This document shows positions 28,298 through 54,048 of a stretch of 64,000 nt of DNA, one piece after another (positions within the stretch are counted from its first letter, which is position 1; each line of letters opens with the position of its first letter). Under the pieces are notes generated by a model. It was given only the letters and a program-made list of their open reading frames with translations. It was not told the DNA's origin and made no database searches. Position numbers and translations under genes: made by a program. Source of the stretch: Minisyncoccota bacterium (lineage in GTDB: Bacteria > Patescibacteriota > Minisyncoccia > Phycocordibacterales > UBA6899); assembly GCA_035583355.1 (NCBI GenBank), contig DATEZQ010000008.1:36610-100609 (forward strand), read 5' to 3'.

Positions 28298-28762
28298 TTA
28301 TTCTACGATGATCGTACCATAGCTTTTTGGCGAAAGATGGTCGTGATACTGCCACGTACCTGGAATATCAAACTGAAAATCCCATGTTTCACCCGATGGG
28401 ATACCCCTACAAGCGTCGAATGTACTTCCGAGGCATCCTCCCGTCGTAGGATATTCATTATGTGTGGGATGCTTTGCAGACGCTGGCCACATTTTATTTG
28501 AACTACTGTTGATGAAAGTAACTACTGTGCCAACTTTTACGCGCAGTGGATTTGGTGTATACCCTCCATCGGTATAAAGAATGGCATTGGGGCTTTGCAG
28601 AGGCTGAACTATTGCTTGGTCCTCGGCTTGTGCAGGCGCAAGGCCTTCTGCTGGTACAATCCTCTGATCAGCCTGATTACGATTACTATCACGGAAGTAT
28701 GCATAGAGCGCAACCCCAATAATACCGAAGGTGATAATGACAATGATGGAATATTTATTCAT
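28298..28762 (-). CDS. Membrane-anchored cupredoxin-fold protein (no Cys ligand)
   Basis: TM anchor, then VKVGTVVTFINSSSNKMW … WQYHDHLSPKSYGTIIV, resembling a cupredoxin/EfeO-N-terminal-like beta sandwich that lacks the type-1 Cu cysteine. Confidence 0.45.
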   Translation of the reverse strand: MNKYSIIVIITFGIIGVALYAYFRDSNRNQADQRIVPAEGLAPAQAEDQAIVQPLQSPNAILYTDGGYTPNPLRVKVGTVVTFINSSSNKMWPASAKHPTHNEYPTTGGCLGSTFDACRGIPSGETWDFQFDIPGTWQYHDHLSPKSYGTIIVE

Positions 28763-29135
28763 GGACGTGGAGAAGTTTACGCGCGAGTGGTTCGGGTAAT
28801 GATTCGAGCATAAGTGCCAACGCAGCAGCAAGTAATCCTATGTCACGAACAGTAATATCAGTGATTCCACTCACCACAAGTACAATTGCTATATGCAAGG
28901 CGCCAAGCGCAGCGGCGAGAGGGATCACTACTCCAAGCGCGAGTAATGCACCGATGACGATATCAATCACGCCAGTCACGAGCATCATGGGTTCAGTCGC
29001 AAATGGAATCAATCCTGACGCCCATCCCTCTATATACCCTCCCCACATAAGTGGCTGCATGATAATGAGGACCCCAATCCAGATAAATGTAATGGCGAGC
29101 CCGACACGTAATATGTGTAATGGTATTTTTCTCAT
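28755..29135 (-). CDS. DoxX-like small membrane protein
   Basis: Four TM helices with a DoxX-like pattern (…ITFIWIGVLIIMQPL…). Start assigned to the internal Met. Confidence 0.5.
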   Translation of the reverse strand: MRKIPLHILRVGLAITFIWIGVLIIMQPLMWGGYIEGWASGLIPFATEPMMLVTGVIDIVIGALLALGVVIPLAAALGALHIAIVLVVSGITDITVRDIGLLAAALALMLESLPEPLARKLLHVHE

Positions 29136-29215
29136 GTTACTATGCTTATGTATAGTATTATAACCCCTACTTGTGAAATGGCAAAGCAAAAGACTCCCCA
29201 AGGGGAGCCTTACTG

Positions 29216-30478
29216 CTACTCACCAAATATCATCGTGTAACGCTTTGCGCGAACGAATGAACGGAGAATGTCTTGCACTTCCTCAACCCTTACCTTTGCC
29301 AAATCAGCAAGCTCATCATCATAGGTGCGTACACGTCCGTAACGCTCAACGTCACCTGATGCACCCGAGACGATATCCCCAATATTTGGGTCCCTTATCT
29401 TGAAACGATTGATCGATCGTCTGATGTGTCGCTCGATCGAAGTAACATCATTGATGGCCGTTTCCACACAAACATCCACAACGTCTTCAAGCTCACCGAG
29501 GTGCTCCCAGGGGAAATCGATATCAACGGCAATCTCGTGCGCCTCAGGGAACCAGCCGACGTTTGTACTCACGCTATACGACCAACCACGCTCCTCACGA
29601 ATCTCTTTGTAGAGTGCATCACTCAATACATTGAGTGCGCGACTGACCGCGACATCAGATATCGTGCCAGGAAATGTCTGACAAAGAAGGACTGACGCCT
29701 GATGTGGCTTCTCCTTATAGATTTCTGGCCAAGGAATATTGTAATGACGCTCATCATCAGGATTTATTTCCTTAAGTGCAAGCGGGGTCGGAATTCGCTC
29801 CCCTTCCTTTACTACAGCAAATTTACTAGACTCCAACGCTTGTACAAATTCATCAAGCGTCATTCCTCCTGAAGCGACGATGCTGATATTCTTCGGAGTA
29901 TAGTTCTTACGATAGAATTCGCGCAACATCTCATGGGTCATCGAGGAGATGGATGAAGCCCGCCCAAGTGGTCGCAAGTAGTGCCCAAGACGATGTTCAC
30001 CGAAGAAGTGTTTGCGGCGACGCAAAAGCAAGTCTACTGATATTGGAACCGGGAAACGCTCCTGATACTCACCCATAATAATCTTCCGCTCTCTCTCAAC
30101 AAAATTATCGAGTGTTGACGTGAGAAGCATTTCACCGAAAAAGTTAAGCCCGAATGCAAGATTATCATTCTCGAGCGGCACGCCGAAGGAGTAACTTGTG
30201 CTCTCATAGCTTGTCGAACCAAAGCGCGCGTAACCACCAATCTCATCGAAGTGCTCCTCGGCCTCCTGGTGGGTCTTCCCTGCAACATTGTGACTGACGA
30301 GGTGTTCGACAAAGTGGGCAGTACCCTCGGAGCCGAGTACATCGTCTTTAGCTCCTGCGTGCACGAGCACCTTCAACTTAATCCATGGATGATTCACTTC
30401 AGAGAAGAAGACGGTGAGACCGTTTGAAAGCGTTGCTTTCAGGAAGGTTGTATAAGGGTCGGAAATTGGATGGGTCAT
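29216..30478 (-). CDS. M16 family zinc peptidase (pitrilysin-like)
   Basis: Inverted zinc motif HFVEH (HxxEH), a downstream Glu, and a two-domain M16 architecture. Confidence 0.85.
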   Translation of the reverse strand: MTHPISDPYTTFLKATLSNGLTVFFSEVNHPWIKLKVLVHAGAKDDVLGSEGTAHFVEHLVSHNVAGKTHQEAEEHFDEIGGYARFGSTSYESTSYSFGVPLENDNLAFGLNFFGEMLLTSTLDNFVERERKIIMGEYQERFPVPISVDLLLRRRKHFFGEHRLGHYLRPLGRASSISSMTHEMLREFYRKNYTPKNISIVASGGMTLDEFVQALESSKFAVVKEGERIPTPLALKEINPDDERHYNIPWPEIYKEKPHQASVLLCQTFPGTISDVAVSRALNVLSDALYKEIREERGWSYSVSTNVGWFPEAHEIAVDIDFPWEHLGELEDVVDVCVETAINDVTSIERHIRRSINRFKIRDPNIGDIVSGASGDVERYGRVRTYDDELADLAKVRVEEVQDILRSFVRAKRYTMIFGE

Positions 30479-30492
30479 TATAGTTTATTGTA

Positions 30493-30690
30493 GCATAATG
30501 GCGCACCCTAAAGGGGCCCGCACCATTATGCTTATTAGGAACCCACGGCTCCTAACGCTTTCTTTGAATACAAAGAAAGCTGTGTTCCTCCACGGGGAAC
30601 CTCCCCGTTCCCCGGCCCCTTCGACACTCACCTTCTCGCTCGGAAGCGAGAAGGCACTAGCATGGTAATATTAGTGCTCGTTTTTCTAAA
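30493..30690 (+). repeat. Structured intergenic element R, copy 1 (possible small RNA; ends in a plus-strand terminator)
   Basis: gcgcaccctaaaggggcccgcacc … perfect hairpin gctttctttgaatacaaagaaagc … tcctccacggggaacctccccgttccccggccccttcgac … hairpin ccttctcgctcggaagcgagaagg … gcactagcatggtaatattagtgc + tcgttttt. The head and core segments recur at 31262-31545. Confidence 0.5.
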
Positions 30691-30721
30691 ATGAAAATGA
30701 TAAAGCAAATACGCTTATAAC

Positions 30722-30750
30722 AATAAAACCTGCAAATGCAGGTTTTTTGT
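30722..30750. terminator. Bidirectional rho-independent terminator
   Basis: aaaacctgcaaatgcaggtttttt. Confidence 0.6.
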
Positions 30751-30752
30751 GA

Positions 30753-31172
30753 TTATTCTGAAACAACAAGCGTACCCCACTGACCACCTGCTCTATGTCC
30801 AGGCTTTGAGCAGTAGTATACGAAACTTCCCACCTTATCTGCAGTAAACTCGACAACGACTTCTTGATTTAGAGGAAGTTCCTTCTGAACCCCAAATTCA
30901 TCAATAACGAAATCATGCATTCCCGCCGTATTTGTAATCTTTACACGGACAAGATCGCCCTTCTTTACAGACATCTCGTTGAGCGAGTACCATTTCCCCT
31001 TTGCGTCATAGTATGCGGTCATTGAAAATTCTTTGACTGGTGCAGTACTTGCGACACTCTCCTTTGCTTCAACAGGAGCAGGCGCTCCCGCTGTAGACCC
31101 ACCGCGCAATGCAAAGTATCCACCGATTGCGATAAGCACTAGAAGCGCGATGATAATGTTTCTTGAATTCAT
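30753..31172 (-). CDS. Type-1 copper (cupredoxin) protein, membrane anchored
   Basis: N-terminal TM/signal. Ligand set His (…AGMHDF…), then Cys-His-Gln in YYCSKPGHRAGGQWGTLVV: a stellacyanin-like Gln in place of the usual Met. Confidence 0.75.
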   Translation of the reverse strand: MNSRNIIIALLVLIAIGGYFALRGGSTAGAPAPVEAKESVASTAPVKEFSMTAYYDAKGKWYSLNEMSVKKGDLVRVKITNTAGMHDFVIDEFGVQKELPLNQEVVVEFTADKVGSFVYYCSKPGHRAGGQWGTLVVSE

Positions 31173-31261
31173 GTATTTTATTTTTATTGTTATTTTCCCA
31201 AAGTTTCGATTTCAATGATTTTTAGAACTTACATATTATACAGGAAAGATAGGAGAATCTC

Positions 31262-31545
31262 ACGTCGCGATGCGGCGCACCCTAAAGGGGCCCACACCGC
31301 CCTGCTCCTCGATTTCATTACATGAACGGTACACCTTTTGGATCTTTTATATCGAAGACTCACAAAAGTCCTCAAAAGGTCTTGCACTCTCGCTCCCATA
31401 AGCATGGGACCCATGAGCGAGAGCTCACCCACGGTTCTCGACGGAAACCCTTTCAGTCAAAAGGGGTTCCTGCTTTCCTACACGGGGAACCTCCCCGTTC
31501 CCCGACCCCCTCGACGTTCGAATCCCCGCGACTCCGCAATACAAA
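31262..31545 (+). repeat. Structured intergenic element R, copy 2
   Basis: Shares gcgcaccctaaaggggccc(a)cacc and tcct(a)cacggggaacctccccgttccccg(a)cccc(c)tcgac with copy 1. Several internal hairpins (ctctcgct…agcgagag; ccataagcatgg). Its 3' end runs into an inverted copy of the tRNA-Ser 3' half. Confidence 0.5.
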
Positions 31546-31600
31546 AAAAGAACAAGTACTCTTGCTCTTTTTTGTATTGCGGAGTCGCGGGGATTCGAAC
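31516..31600. repeat. Near-perfect ~40-bp-arm palindrome: inverted duplication of the tRNA-Ser 3' end plus ~20 nt of flank
   Basis: gttcgaatccccgcgactccgcaatacaaaaaaagaacaagtac | tcttgctcttttttgtattgcggagtcgcggggattcgaac. Confidence 0.7.
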
Positions 31601-31666
31601 CCCGGATGGCTGTTACACCATACTCACTTTCCAGGCGAGCGCACTAGACCACTATGCGACGACTCC
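31580..31666 (-). tRNA. tRNA-Ser (anticodon GGA), class II with a long variable arm
   Basis: Minus strand: GGAGTCG TC GCA TAGTGGTCTAG TGC G CTCGC CTGGAAA GTGAG [long variable arm ATGG…CCAT] CGGGG TTCGAAT CCCCG CGACTCC G. 7-bp acceptor stem, T-loop TTCGAAT, anticodon loop CU-GGA-AA. Confidence 0.85.
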
Positions 31667-31781
31667 GTTAATATTATGCCAAGGTAAGGTCTTTAGTCTT
31701 CATGACGTATCGCGATTGTACTATCTTTCGCGAATTTAGCAAAGATGGAATATGTTCTAGTGGGTTATAATATATATATAT

Positions 31782-32114
31782 ATGGAAAAGACTCTCGCGC
31801 CCATCATCTCCCTCATCAGCAAATCTGAGAAAGCAATAGAAAAACTTAAGCAAGGATCATGGCAGCACACTATGCTCGAAGGCAATCTCAGGGCGCTCCA
31901 CTATGCATTGTCACTGATGGATACAACCAAATCAAAACGAGAGTCTCTAAGCGATACTGAAGTTAAAGAATACCTCAAGTCCTTGGACTCAATGATTACT
32001 AAGACCAAAATTGCGCAAAAGAAGTTCCCTCTAGGTACGGCACAACACACATTGCTCAAGAACAGACTGCATGCGCTTGCGATAGCTAAGGTTTTCACAA
32101 AACGAGCACATTAA
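31782..32114 (+). CDS. Hypothetical helical protein (110 aa)
   Basis: Clean ORF downstream of an AT-rich promoter-like region (tatatatatatATG). No family recognised. Confidence 0.45.
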   Translation: MEKTLAPIISLISKSEKAIEKLKQGSWQHTMLEGNLRALHYALSLMDTTKSKRESLSDTEVKEYLKSLDSMITKTKIAQKKFPLGTAQHTLLKNRLHALAIAKVFTKRAH

Positions 32115-35294: not shown

Positions 35295-36487
35295 CGGTAG
35301 TGCTCAGCCTTACTTGGAAGCCCCTCAACGAGTACAAAGAGGAGTGCCGCAGTAAGTGCAAGCACGGCACCATAGAAAAATGTTGTCTCTGGTCCCCAAT
35401 GCGTCCAAAGCAGTCCTCCAACAAGCGATGCGATAAATGCAGCGATACCGGTCAACATATAATAAAATCCATATGCGGTTCCGAGTTTTTCGGTTGGAAC
35501 GATATTTGCGATGTATGACTTTGACACTCCATCAGTAAGCGCCATATAGAATCCATATACAGGAAAGAGTATCCAGATATGTAGTGGCGATTGTATCAGT
35601 GCAAAGCCCGCGTACACAACAGCGAATATAACAAGTCCGAGCACATACACTTTCTTCTCACCAAGCTTGTCCGAAATAATTCCCGCTGGGAGCGAGAATG
35701 CAGAGTAGGTGATGTTATAGAGTACATATGCAAGCACCGTCACGATAAGCGAAAAGCCAAGCCCCTTCGCACGCAAGATCAAGAACGCATCAGAGCTATT
35801 TCCAATAGCAAAAATTGTTGAGATCACTACGAAGAAGAGAAACTTTCGAGGCAGAGCACTTATGCGGAACTTTTCTGCACTGGGCGCAATTACGGATCGC
35901 TGTTTTTCCTTTATGTACACTACAAGAAGTATGAGTGCAATAGAAGTTGGAATAAGCGCAAGGAAAAACATCAGGCGATAGTTATCCTGATAGAAGTGCA
36001 ACAACAGTATCGCCAGCAGCGGCCCAAGAATTGCTCCAAGCGTATCAGTCCCGCGGTGAAAGCCAAAGGCACGACCGAGCATCTTTGGCTCGACGTTTTC
36101 TGCAATGAGTGCATCACGCGCACTCGTGCGTATCCCCTTCCCAAGTCTACTAGTGAATTTCCCCGCAAGGACCAGGTGCCAAGTGTTTGCTATTCCATAG
36201 AACAGATTTGCAATCGTACCGAGCCCATACCCAACAACTACGAAAATCTTGCGCTTTCCGGTCATATCGGAAAGTCTTCCAGAAAATCCTTTTAACAAAC
36301 TTGCCGTACCCTCAGCAATGCCTTCGATGAGGCCTACAATAGAAGCAGGAGCACCGAGTACAGAAGTGAGGAATATCGGAACGATTGGATAAAGCATTTC
36401 CGAAGCAACATCATTGAAGAAGCTTACTACAGAGAGCACAAAAACGGGCGTAGTGACACCATATTTCCTTTCCAAATATTCACGCAT
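35291..36487 (-). CDS. MFS transporter
   Basis: Twelve predicted TM helices. The MFS motif region …GRLSDMTGKRKIFVVVGYGLG… between TM2 and TM3. Confidence 0.85.
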   Translation of the reverse strand: MREYLERKYGVTTPVFVLSVVSFFNDVASEMLYPIVPIFLTSVLGAPASIVGLIEGIAEGTASLLKGFSGRLSDMTGKRKIFVVVGYGLGTIANLFYGIANTWHLVLAGKFTSRLGKGIRTSARDALIAENVEPKMLGRAFGFHRGTDTLGAILGPLLAILLLHFYQDNYRLMFFLALIPTSIALILLVVYIKEKQRSVIAPSAEKFRISALPRKFLFFVVISTIFAIGNSSDAFLILRAKGLGFSLIVTVLAYVLYNITYSAFSLPAGIISDKLGEKKVYVLGLVIFAVVYAGFALIQSPLHIWILFPVYGFYMALTDGVSKSYIANIVPTEKLGTAYGFYYMLTGIAAFIASLVGGLLWTHWGPETTFFYGAVLALTAALLFVLVEGLPSKAEHYR

Positions 36488-36567
36488 ATGAATAAGTATA
36501 GCATCACAAATATATTGAAAAAATTACGGGAGTCATTGTATGACTCCCGTAAGGGTGTTTGGGGAAG

Positions 36568-37302
36568 CTACTTCTTCTTCCCCTTCTTGCCGTCGTCCGA
36601 CTTATTGCCGCCACCACCGCCACCGACCTTGCCAGGGAACTTGCTGGCGCGCTCGAGCTGGCGGGCGCGGCGCTCACCTTCGTGATGCTCGCGCGCCTTG
36701 GCCTTCTCGGCCTCGGACTGCGGGCCGGCGACCTTCTTGTAGACCGTGATGCTCTGCTTGAGGACAGGGTGGAACACGACCAGCTGACCGGGATTCTCCG
36801 ACTTCAGTTCGAAGCCGCAGTTGACCCAGTCGTCCGCGGTGAAGGTCACCTTCATCTTCTTCTCGATCTCCTCGCAGGAGCTCGAAATGATGGAGGGGGT
36901 CCTCGCACCGATGGCCTTGATGGCCGCGAGCACCTTCACCTTCTCGGCGAAGTACAGGTGGCCCTGGAAGCGAGCGGCGGCCCGCAGCATCGCGGACATC
37001 TTCGTCCCCCGCTTCTCGACGTTCTCGACCTTCAGCGCATTGCGCAGGAAGTCGGAGAAGTCGGAGAGGAGCGACACGGTGACCTCGGCCGGAGCCAGGC
37101 GCGTGATGTCCGCGATGAGCATGTCGGGCATGAAGCCGTTCTCGCGAACGACATCGGCCGCTTCGTTGAAGAGGCAGTTCTTGATCAGGCCCTTGGCCTT
37201 GTCGATGTTGCCCTTGAACTCGATCTCCGGCACGTAGGCACGGGGACGGATGACGGGCTTGTTGGCGGGAGTGGCGGCCTGAGCCGAGACCTGAGCGGTC
37301 AT
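36568..37302 (-). CDS. Hypothetical 244-aa protein encoded in a high-G+C (about 60-70%) island; C-terminal Gly/Lys-rich basic tail; probable horizontal acquisition
   Basis: Individual 60-nt lines count 63-73% G+C, against ~40% just upstream. The minus-frame protein has a natural composition, whereas the overlapping plus-frame and other-frame ORFs are Leu/Arg/Gly/Ala-biased antisense artefacts. The C-terminus is …KFPGKVGGGGGGNKSDDGKKGKKK. Confidence 0.55.
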   Translation of the reverse strand: MTAQVSAQAATPANKPVIRPRAYVPEIEFKGNIDKAKGLIKNCLFNEAADVVRENGFMPDMLIADITRLAPAEVTVSLLSDFSDFLRNALKVENVEKRGTKMSAMLRAAARFQGHLYFAEKVKVLAAIKAIGARTPSIISSSCEEIEKKMKVTFTADDWVNCGFELKSENPGQLVVFHPVLKQSITVYKKVAGPQSEAEKAKAREHHEGERRARQLERASKFPGKVGGGGGGNKSDDGKKGKKK

Positions 37303-37380
37303 GAGTGCACCTCAAATAAGAGGGTTTAGGGGAAAGTACAGTGCGACGACCGTTATCGTCGTGACATACAGTATACCACA

Positions 37381-37399
37381 TATTGACAAATTGTCAATA
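37381..37399. promoter_or_regulatory. 19-bp perfect palindrome (candidate operator) between divergent genes
   Basis: tattgacaa-a-ttgtcaata. Each half contains TTGACA. Confidence 0.4.
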
Positions 37400-37457
37400 C
37401 ATGTTAGTTTCATACCAGATACGGCTTGGTCGATACCAAGCGGAACAAGGAGCAGTC

Positions 37458-53588: not shown

Positions 53589-53593
53589 AACAT

Positions 53594-53634
53594 AAACCAC
53601 TTCGCCCAAACTTGGACGAAGTGGTTTTGTTTTA
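53594..53634 (+). terminator. Rho-independent terminator of rnj
   Basis: aaaccacttcgcccaaacttggacgaagtggttttgtttt. Confidence 0.65.
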
Positions 53635-54048
53635 CATTCAACTCGGGCATTTTCGGCGGCTGTCTTTTTGCCAGGACCGACCAGCGCTCGCCCACGTCTC
53701 ACATCAATATTTCTCGCAAAGCCTCAAAATATTGTGTGGTCTCGGGCCCGCCTCGCAGTCTCGAAGACTCGACATAGCCCCGGCTTACTCGCGGGAAAAT
53801 GCTATCGCATTTGCCTTCCCGCTCGTACTCCGAGTACCCTTGTACACTATCGTGCTGCGCGCAGGCCGTTGCTGGCAAAAATCCTAGCCGTTTCATTGTG
53901 TAAATTGAGGAGCCAGGAATGATGCTAAGTCCGAGCCGTTTCATAGGGCAGATTGAATGGCTTAGAATTTAGGTCTCATGACGCATGACCCATGACTTTA
54001 ATGCACAGGTAGTACCATAGACTGTACTAAGTATGCTATTATATAGTC

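Follow-up and report, generated by a model that had tools for sequence, protein, structure and literature searches.

A folded non-coding element repeated on both sides of a resident cupredoxin gene in a Minisyncoccota bacterium belongs to a family found in at least three bacterial phyla

The window analysed here, a stretch of 64,000 nucleotides (nt) from contig DATEZQ010000008.1 of a Minisyncoccota bacterium (GenBank assembly GCA_035583355.1), contains a cupredoxin gene which is flanked by two copies of a folded non-coding element. Copy 1 lies in the spacer towards an M16 peptidase gene and copy 2 in the spacer towards a tRNA-Ser gene (Table 1; positions count from the first letter of the window, and loci in other genomes carry the prefix L). 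Both repeats belong to a family that is present in at least three bacterial phyla, with members in Acidobacteriota, Actinomycetota, Saccharibacteria and Paceibacterota.

Table 1. Coordinates of the features at the locus, with strand and supporting evidence
Feature	Position	Strand	Description and evidence
M16 peptidase gene	29216-30478	-	left of copy 1; Pfam scan
Copy 1	30490-30690	+	discrete unit of ~195 nt; repeats, fold, indel relative to the spacer of L056
Copy 1, 5' hairpin	30492-30532	+	stem AGCATAATGG(C)GC / GC(A)CCATTATGCT; inverted repeat and minimum-free-energy fold
Copy 1, core	30591-30625	+	hairpin CGGGGAAC-CTCCCC-GTTCCCCG, then C-rich tail GCCCCTTCGAC; exact 24-mer match
Copy 1, 3' module	30631-30687	+	perfect 10-bp hairpin CCTTCTCGCT-CGGA-AGCGAGAAGG, then GCACTA..TAGTGC hairpin and U-tract TCGTTTTTCT
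Intrinsic terminator of the cupredoxin gene, bidirectional	30725-30746	.	outside the element; kept in relatives without copy 1
Cupredoxin gene, 139 amino acids (aa)	30753-31172	-	PF13473; syntenic in L041 and L056 to L059
Promoter-like site of the cupredoxin gene	31235-31263	-	-35 GTGAGA, 17-nt spacer, -10 TATAAT; 10/12 matches
Copy 2	31252-31515	+	repeats, fold; nhmmer against the L041 element, E = 2e-55
Inverted target copy	31516-31548	+	33 nt, 100% inverted repeat; directly after the tail of copy 2
Palindrome centre, 19 nt	31549-31567	.	bidirectional terminator hairpin common to tRNA-Ser and element; sequence, fold
tRNA-Ser(GGA) gene	31579-31666	-	intact, convergent with copy 2; ARAGORN; Rfam tRNA, 54.9 bits

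The two copies share a head block of 25 nt (30500-30524 and 31274-31298, 96% identity) and a core block of 46 nt (30580-30625 and 31470-31515, 89% identity), each on the plus strand both times and each where a preliminary description of this DNA had placed it. With up to 3 mismatches allowed, the 24-nt core and the 20-nt head occur exactly twice each in the window, and no occurrence is expected by chance (100 dinucleotide shuffles). Six hairpins are predicted for the region of copy 1 (30488-30692), which folds with a z-score of -7.07 relative to shuffles, and the region of copy 2 (31255-31580) reaches -5.23. Repeat coordinates, shuffle controls and fold z-scores thus confirm two same-orientation copies of a structured non-coding element. 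At gathering score, the sole Rfam match in the window is the tRNA, and at E ≤ 10 nothing rises above noise over 30300-31800; a scan of both copies against Rfam, proposed in the preliminary description, accordingly matched no family. A 56-aa open reading frame (ORF) spanning copy 1 has no Pfam match.

In copy 1, the 5' hairpin is followed by internal hairpins, the core hairpin, the C-rich tail, the perfect 3' hairpin and the final hairpin with its U-tract. The stem of the 5' hairpin encloses the shared head CACCCTAAAGGGGCCC, and in its outer part other complementary sequences can substitute, GCGG..CCGC in copy 2 and AAGCTTTGGT..ACCAAAGCTT in the element of L059. The 3' module, the hairpin of which starts at +17 after the core like the 3' hairpin of the family, recurs together with the element in a different spacer of L059; copy 1 matches the L059 element with an nhmmer E-value of 4e-23 and the L041 element with 2e-20. 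The terminal hairpin GCACTA..TAGTGC (30654-30677) and the following TCGTTTTTCT are terminator-like on the plus strand only, which agrees with the plus-strand terminator described previously. The consensus terminator scan made no call at this end, the loop of 12 nt lying beyond its stated limit of 3–8 nt.

Copy 2 starts with the leader GGAGAATCTCAC-GTCGCG and continues with the head hairpin; a stretch of variable hairpins (~170 nt) separates the latter from the core hairpin (31481-31504), which leads into the tail ACCCCCTCGAC. The leader GGAGAATCTCAC, which harbors the predicted -35 box of the cupredoxin gene, is kept in L041 and occurs twice in L057. As stated in the preliminary description, copy 2 runs directly into an inverted tRNA-Ser fragment: positions 31516-31548 read as the sense strand of tRNA-Ser from the T-loop over the acceptor 3' strand to the trailer and form one arm of a perfect 33-nt palindrome. 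An equivalent arm is found in L041 (51 nt, 92%) and is visible in the sequence of L056. The tRNA-Ser(GGA) gene is the insertion target of copy 2.

Close relatives of the locus were recovered by the core sequence (L041) and by cupredoxin homologues at 78–85% identity (L056 to L059); their layouts are given in the orientation of the window. In L041, one long element is located between the cupredoxin gene and a convergent tRNA-Ser gene, and both the M16 gene and copy 1 are missing. In L056, the cupredoxin gene is followed by a 76-nt spacer devoid of the element and then by the M16 gene, and in L058 by a 34-nt spacer, a HAD gene and the M16 gene. L057 displays a different structured module on both sides of the cupredoxin gene. 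In L059, the cupredoxin and tRNA-Ser genes are separated by a unit that resembles copy 1 and has its 3' hairpins and U-tract; the tRNA-Ser gene is inverted relative to the window, with a terminator and another inverted tRNA fragment beyond it. An element adjoins the cupredoxin gene in all five loci whose contig covers that side (window, L041, L056, L057 and L059), and tRNA-Ser adjoins in the four of these with contigs long enough, that is, all except L057. Only a single element stands beside the cupredoxin gene in L041, L056 and L059. Within this syntenic clade the cupredoxin gene is constant; the element of the second spacer (copy 1) and the M16 and HAD genes vary. Alignment with L056 reveals copy 1 as a clean indel of ~190 nt in an otherwise collinear spacer. 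The element body of L056 is swapped for an unrelated module while the tRNA-derived arm stays, and the element of L041 is, by nhmmer, a mosaic of both window copies, which points to exchange between copies. The window cupredoxin is 100% identical to a protein of a Candidatus Paceibacterota metagenome-assembled genome (MAG), and homologues at 70% and 66% identity are found in unrelated contexts. As a side observation, the module of tRNA-Ser, terminator and inverted tRNA fragment (31516-31666 in the window, 1-180 in L059) is flipped relative to the cupredoxin gene in L059; to judge from the sequence, the whole palindrome-bearing unit was inverted in this lineage.

The same orientation of the copies, the single gene between them and the adjacent tRNA had led to the proposal that they are the boundaries of a minimal integrated cassette with the cupredoxin gene as its cargo. 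This view is hardly tenable. The cupredoxin gene, which should then be absent from the site in relatives, is present in L041 and in L056 to L059, including the loci with a single element, and it is copy 1 alone that behaves as an indel. This presence throughout the syntenic clade is what the preliminary description had listed as speaking against its proposal. Direct tRNA-derived repeats bounding an insert are not seen either: the sole tRNA-derived repeat is inverted and lies on one side only, and therefore does not make up an attL/attR pair. Moreover, the repeats are members of a dispersed multi-phylum family and thus no locus-specific pair. No recombinase gene was found among the adjacent proteins scanned by Pfam (M16, a protein with a weak DoxX-like match, another with a weak cupredoxin-like match and a 110-aa protein without Pfam hit), a scan confined to these neighbours. 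In conclusion, the cupredoxin gene, the only credible gene between the two copies, is a resident located between two occupied spacers.

A second kind of repeated non-coding module was observed in the window, in a 460-nt spacer between two plus-strand genes (53589-54048). Its best-matching part (53694-53822, plus strand) corresponds to an insert of the L041 element (nhmmer E = 1e-9) and also to the modules of L056 and L057; the sites are 7280-7410 in L041, 4780-4925 in L056, and 23-149 and 784-918 in L057. This module (GAGUCACAAAG.. with CUCGAAGACUCG), the window copy of which folds no better than shuffles (z = -1.2), either substitutes for the core-bearing body or nests inside it. L041 and both L057 copies have retained the 5' leader GGAGAAUCUCAYGUCGCGAUGCG, L041 and L056 the tRNA-derived 3' arm, and element bodies appear to swap between fixed ends.

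The wider family was collected with the exact 20-nt core centre GGGGAACCTCCCCGTTCCCC as query, searched in species-representative genomes and in metagenomes, which yielded 119 loci (55 and 64, respectively). Most hosts belong to Acidobacteriota and Actinomycetota (Gaiellaceae and relatives); in addition, there is one hit in Saccharibacteria (L003) and one in a close Paceibacterota relative (L041). Since an exact word was searched, its invariance is no proof and the informative features are those outside it. Among the 114 unique hits outside the candidate phyla radiation (CPR), a tail CCCC(C)YUY follows within 6 nt downstream of the core in 105, the full CCCCYUCGMC tail is present in 74, and the core stem is extended by at least 2 Watson-Crick pairs in 96; all three features are absent from the query. 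In L003 (positions 1-60), the element tail is followed by GCCAGCTCGAATCCGGCGCCCGGCAA, which resembles a tRNA T-loop and acceptor 3' strand and with which the locus sequence ends, so the tRNA-end association may extend to Saccharibacteria.

Throughout the family, a near-invariant core hairpin, (C)GGGGAAC-CUCCCC-GUUCCCC(G), and its C-rich tail CCCCYUCGMC are surrounded by variable, co-varying hairpins. At three positions flanking the core stem, GC, CG and TA pairs alternate, and degenerate neighbouring copies carry compensated changes within the core, for instance GGGGGAC..GTCCCCC in the second unit of L010. The ~150-nt alignment of acidobacterial copies comprises five helices with 95.1% of cells paired and 10 pairs changed on both sides; none of 500 shuffles reached the observed values, and slid controls gave 42–54%. 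Conserved structure and co-variation across copies, the absence of which would have spoken against the element of the preliminary description, are therefore both strong. Common to the window copies and the acidobacterial consensus are the head (GCGCNCCC..GGGG), the linker (CUGYUYCCUCC) and the core plus tail; the inserted hairpins differ. The two ends of the element, GUCGCGC..GGGGG (5') and CCCCC..CGAC (3'), are complementary to each other, giving rise to a helix that continues into the flanks; in the window, this complementarity is seen as GUCG/CGAC in copy 2 and is missing in copy 1.

Elements measure about 150–420 nt, encode no protein of their own and differ by hairpin indels which are not multiples of three. 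Three forms can be distinguished: a full acidobacterial form, an actinobacterial form in operons and a minimal actinobacterial form consisting of core, tail and a single additional hairpin. Counted by exact matches to the 20-mer, the acidobacterial MAG JBMFSH01 has nine sites spread over seven contigs, JAJYCJ01 seven over six and JBAWEQ01 six over five; the window contains only 2 copies in 64 kb. Rfam recognised only tRNAs in 18 related loci and gave no significant match for an acidobacterial tandem pair. The CPR-specific 24-mer had no match in metagenome contigs, core and head none in viral contigs, and an acidobacterial unit none among plasmids. No prior description of the family was found in the searchable literature.

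On the strand with the C-rich core, the insertions display a common layout: a copy of the target, the element, an inverted copy of the adjacent target, a loop and the target again. The sites are gene ends, namely tRNA 3' ends, 3' or 5' ends of protein genes and stop/start junctions in operons. Local alignment detected direct repeats of 24–200 nt around 26 copies, the longest of which cover whole units of tandem arrays (up to three units, periods ~240–264 nt). Target duplications span about 6–130 nt overall and have no fixed length. At gene ends they comprise ~37–130 nt, exact or diverged; at operon junctions, where a repeat of ~6–9 nt such as ATGAGCG lies across the stop/start overlap, and around the nested copy of L017 described below, ~6–10 nt. 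The duplicated segment reaches from the insertion point to the gene boundary, so that one complete gene remains. Examples of duplicated targets are tRNA 3' ends including the terminators (tRNA-Gly, -Phe, -Leu and -Ser), the last part of a protein gene in L011, which we take from its C-terminal residues, read by eye, to be a candidate fumarate hydratase gene, and the first 21 codons of a protein gene in L042. Targeted tRNA genes are always convergent with the core strand. The inverted target copy starts 11–16 nt after the core in most loci and tracks the target, as in CGCTCAT/ATGAGCG, CGTTCAT/ATGAACG and GCGCTCAC/GTGAGCGC. In L010 and L001 it runs past the duplication boundary into the intact tRNA, which identifies the downstream intact target as its source. 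Judged by sequence and position, the 33-nt palindrome of the window is the inverted target copy of this family.

A direct sign of recent insertion or loss, and the only one, is the polymorphism between L017 and L042. The aligned flanks of these loci are identical save for a handful of positions, and in L017 a hairpin of the resident element houses an additional copy of 153 nt, which L042 lacks. The flank TCGGCCGGCC of the filled site appears a second time as TCGGCGGCC, with its complement GCCGCC just before. This pair of empty and filled sites makes the mechanism of insertion directly testable. No partner protein could be identified: among ORFs of at least 150 aa no family recurs in the loci examined, which cover 8–14 kb at most each, and no TnpB, IscB or IS110 gene is adjacent in them.

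In three diverged acidobacterial genomes (L042, L084 and L093), the element is inserted after codon 21 of a MI(V/L)ITTHTNADFD.. gene, the codons being duplicated on both sides. The frame from the upstream ATG stays open through the element as far as a TGA stop that shares bases with the ATG of the intact copy. In translation, the core yields GNLPVP in L042 and WGTSPFP in L084 and L093, and across copies it is read in all three frames, indicating that the open frame and the overlap are kept rather than the peptide. About 10 of 12 operon copies show such a frame with a stop overlapping the next start; by a rough composition-based estimate, one such frame would be open by chance with a probability of about 1/3. 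The window copies are intergenic, antisense to their neighbours and not translationally coupled. In L093, the two 21-codon copies differ at seven nucleotides, all of them synonymous and including TCG versus AGC for serine, which suggests that one copy was imported from another lineage via recombination in conserved coding sequence or that both are under coding constraint. In the Gaiellaceae-type operon copies L038, L015, L023, L064, L066, L083 and L092, the next start codon was seen in the 3' arm of a post-element hairpin with a GGAG-like loop; such a hairpin may help re-initiation.

The evidence on the active strand is divided. Single mismatches in Watson-Crick helices of 60 acidobacterial copies, read on the C-rich strand, comprise 18 of the A.C type and 3 of the G.U type, a count which, owing to the mutual relatedness of these sequences, is a lean towards the G-rich strand and not a test. 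The head stem contains, in both window copies and in L041, a C.A mismatch for which the minus strand would have a U.G pair, and a G-to-A difference between the window copies keeps pairing on the minus strand only. RNAalifold counts (G.U 29 and A.C 9 on the opposite strand; G.U 23 and A.C 15 on the motif strand) lean slightly, not decisively, to the opposite strand as well, and fold z-scores per strand are equal (-3.5 versus -3.8). In favour of the C-rich strand, the operon copies are sense on it, and the hairpins with U-tract of copy 1 and L059 terminate on the plus strand only. No plus-strand promoter reached the threshold of the promoter scan. A strand bias of the folded form would be expected of an element that is handled as single-stranded DNA.

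Taken together, these features lead us to favour, with some reserve, an interpretation of both repeats as diverged copies of a small, non-coding, folded insertion element, selfish and non-autonomous in the manner of MITEs (miniature inverted-repeat transposable elements) and mycobacterial interspersed repetitive units (MIRUs). The folded single-stranded element would be handled by an enzyme encoded elsewhere, for which the core hairpin could serve as a handle. Units that carry a conserved gene end might loop out between direct repeats and re-enter by recombination in the homology. The inverted target copy could stem from fold-back priming from the paired ends, from recombination at short identities or from later perfection of a quasi-palindrome. 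Copy 2 would be a long-standing resident at the tRNA-Ser terminator, the tRNA-derived arm being kept even in L056, and copy 1 probably a second unit that entered the M16–cupredoxin spacer later, in the lineage of the window. Either copy may also be transcribed.

Several observations weigh against this interpretation. No transposase, integrase or reverse transcriptase was found in the loci examined, and mobility rests on the anatomy and a single presence/absence polymorphism. No target duplication is visible around either window copy, and the duplications flanking family members elsewhere greatly exceed in length and variability those made by any transposase. These long duplications, together with the purely synonymous differences in L093, point to imported gene ends and recombination rather than classical transposition. 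Because every locus was retrieved through an exact 20-mer, ascertainment accounts in part for the seeming invariance of the core. The strand evidence conflicts, the mismatches favouring the G-rich strand (minus in the window) and the sense orientation in operons and the copy 1 terminator the C-rich strand. Furthermore, diverged copies with compensatory changes within one genome fit a selected functional RNA equally well as recognition by an enzyme.

Such an RNA is the subject of an alternative that appears unlikely: the copies could be paralogous plus-strand small-RNA (sRNA) genes of ~200 and ~310 nt, each with its own promoter and intrinsic terminator. By analogy with riboregulators of the 6C/RsaE type, their C-rich loops (CUCCCC, CCUCC) might pair with G-rich ribosome-binding regions, a mode of action that is improbable to the same degree. 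The strong folding of both copies, the co-varying helices of the family, the compensatory replacement in the 5' hairpin among copy 1, copy 2 and L059, and the retention of two copies in a small CPR genome would all be expected of sRNAs, as would a plus-strand-only hairpin with U-tract at the end of copy 1, which is kept in L059, and a bidirectional terminator at the end of copy 2. However, no plus-strand promoter exceeds the scan threshold, the C.A mismatch of the head stem becomes a wobble pair only on the minus strand, and mismatches in the family favour that other strand too. Target duplications, nested insertion, tandem arrays and inverted target copies would be left unexplained, and in L056 it is the element body that has been replaced by an unrelated module and the tRNA-derived arm that was retained.

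Wobble pairs that favour folding of the minus strand would fit upstream regulatory or leader regions of the M16 and cupredoxin genes, acting on that strand and each lying between an upstream terminator and the promoter of the next minus-strand gene. The -35 box of the cupredoxin gene within the conserved leader of copy 2, and the same leader in front of the HAD gene in L057, point in this direction. Despite these agreements, the bulk of each element lies upstream of the promoter and hence outside the mRNA, L056 and L058 have the same genes without copy 1, and family members occur in every orientation relative to their neighbours, which makes this explanation very unlikely. Little more probable, though slightly so, are scars of integrative elements that use tRNA or gene ends as attachment sites, with the core as what remains of a recombinase site or its arm region after loss of the element body. 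Read on the tRNA strand, an acidobacterial unit consists of the tRNA, an insert and a direct repeat of tRNA 3' end, trailer and terminator, reminiscent of attL and attR. The core is a 7–9 bp inverted repeat around a 6-nt asymmetric spacer; core sites of tyrosine recombinases have the layout of an inverted repeat around an asymmetric spacer, to which the core is likened by analogy. Synonymous-only differences between duplicated gene ends would also fit a gene end borne by an element. Yet whole units measure just 150–260 nt, stand in tandem and bear no trace of a larger element, no integrase is found near any locus examined, the targets vary by copy and include operon stop/start junctions unlike those of site-specific integrases, and the tRNA fragment of the window is inverted.

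A further-reaching view of the insertion element, which is possible but doubtful, regards the family as a cross-phylum class of mobile elements that mirror their target. An unknown, possibly host-encoded enzyme working on folded single-stranded nucleic acid would recognise a universal core hairpin, and the inverted copy might act as guide or homology arm. Each insertion would then write, or require, an inverted copy of the adjacent target at the 3' end of the element, and a unit could re-enter the same conserved gene end in other genomes. If the favoured interpretation as an insertion element holds, a single 20-nt hairpin core would link small insertions in soil Acidobacteriota, Actinomycetota and ultra-small CPR bacteria, implying either that horizontal spread has been very wide or that many bacteria share a cellular handle. 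The family also displays an unusual life inside genes without breakage, in which the gene end is duplicated, translation stays open and the stop falls on the next start codon. For genome annotation, the units are at risk of being mistaken for sRNAs, attachment sites or cassette boundaries, and long perfect palindromes at tRNA terminators can confuse assembly and the calling of tRNA fragments.

Other identities were considered and rejected. A guide RNA of TnpB or IscB is contradicted by the lack of such an adjacent gene and of any Rfam match to HEARO or IS605-orfB. For a transfer-messenger RNA (tmRNA), including permuted forms, ARAGORN found no candidate, the 5' strand of the T-stem is missing before GUUCGAAUC, and the Rfam hit to permuted tmRNA (22 bits, cutoff 47) merely spans the palindrome. 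A tRNA with group I intron or a tRNA-like Y RNA would require an acceptor/T-arm geometry that is not present, and Rfam gives no match. Repeats of diversity-generating retroelements do not apply, as the differences between duplicated gene ends show no specificity for adenine and a nearby reverse transcriptase is lacking; a CRISPR-like array is incompatible with units of 240–264 nt carrying duplicated host DNA. A protein-coding minigene is at odds with a core read in all three frames and with hairpin indels that shift the frame. The spacing does not seem to fit a protein site of the LexA, extracytoplasmic-function (ECF) promoter or dif type.

Among the neighbouring features, the start codon of the M16 gene (30478-30500, minus strand) lies inside TATAATG, with TACAAT a few bases upstream, which suggests that the M16 leader is very short or absent. 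Further minus-strand genes encode a weak second cupredoxin-like protein (28298-28831, 177 aa, under the Pfam cutoff) and a DoxX-like membrane protein with a weak match (28755-29201). This pair (28298-29201) is placed between the M16 gene and a two-component system, where relatives have genes for proteins of 126 aa and ~152 aa instead. A GC-rich island at 36400-37400 (GC 0.58–0.64 versus ~0.45 around it) has long open frames on both strands, among them a minus-strand ORF of 244 aa with a lysine/glycine-rich tail and no Pfam match.

Comparison with known systems reveals partial likenesses. MIRUs insert at start codons in operons in such a way that the ORF of the repeat overlaps the following gene by 4 nt (ATGA), which limits polar effects (PMC12548453). 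The present family resembles them in its short, non-coding and sometimes tandem repeats and in the copies of operons and of L042, L084 and L093, which end on the next start. However, MIRUs measure 40–100 bp and have been described in mycobacteria, and no sequence relation is evident in a comparison made by description. The family differs in addition by its conserved multi-hairpin fold, its antisense sites at tRNA and gene 3' ends, the inverted target copy and its spread over at least three phyla. Integron gene cassettes with their attC sites come closest, in formal terms, to the cassette of the preliminary description. With attC sites the family shares folded single-strand hairpins in which structure is kept more than sequence, a strand bias and tandem arrays of short units; in contrast to attC, the core lacks RYYYAAC...GTTRRRY at the ends of a 60–140 nt hairpin, neither an integrase nor an attI site is seen, and the units carry duplicated host gene ends instead of promoterless cargo genes. 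The omega RNA of TnpB and the bridge RNA of IS110 likewise combine a structured scaffold with a following copy-specific segment that matches a nearby target, but in the family this segment is an inverted duplicate of the neighbouring DNA and not the flank itself.

MITEs, Correia elements, enterobacterial repetitive intergenic consensus (ERIC) sequences, repetitive extragenic palindromes and their hairpin-forming doublets (REP/REPIN) and Rickettsia palindromic elements are small, non-autonomous and multi-copy, form hairpins with complementary ends and are in part found in transcribed or translated regions. By description, the family is like these in being small, non-coding, multi-copy and hairpin-folding. 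Its duplications are not of fixed length (6–10 nt or 37–130 nt), an extra inverted target copy is present, and no cognate transposase or REP-associated tyrosine transposase (RAYT) is seen around family members. Moreover, MITE families seldom extend beyond a narrow set of lineages, whereas the core of the present family is kept from phylum to phylum. Integrative elements at tRNA and gene 3' ends likewise keep their target intact by a duplicated end, and show a direct repeat on the tRNA strand and synonymous-only differences between the ends; they differ from the family in its units of ~200 nt without integrase, its many targets including gene 5' ends and operon junctions, and the inverted tRNA piece of the window. 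The family is absent from Rfam and, with no fixed short duplication, no cognate transposase, no integrase and window copies that are not translationally coupled, matches neither MIRUs nor MITEs nor tRNA-targeting integrative elements outright; MIRUs, MITE-like palindromic repeats and tRNA-targeting integrative elements are nevertheless its nearest known kinds.

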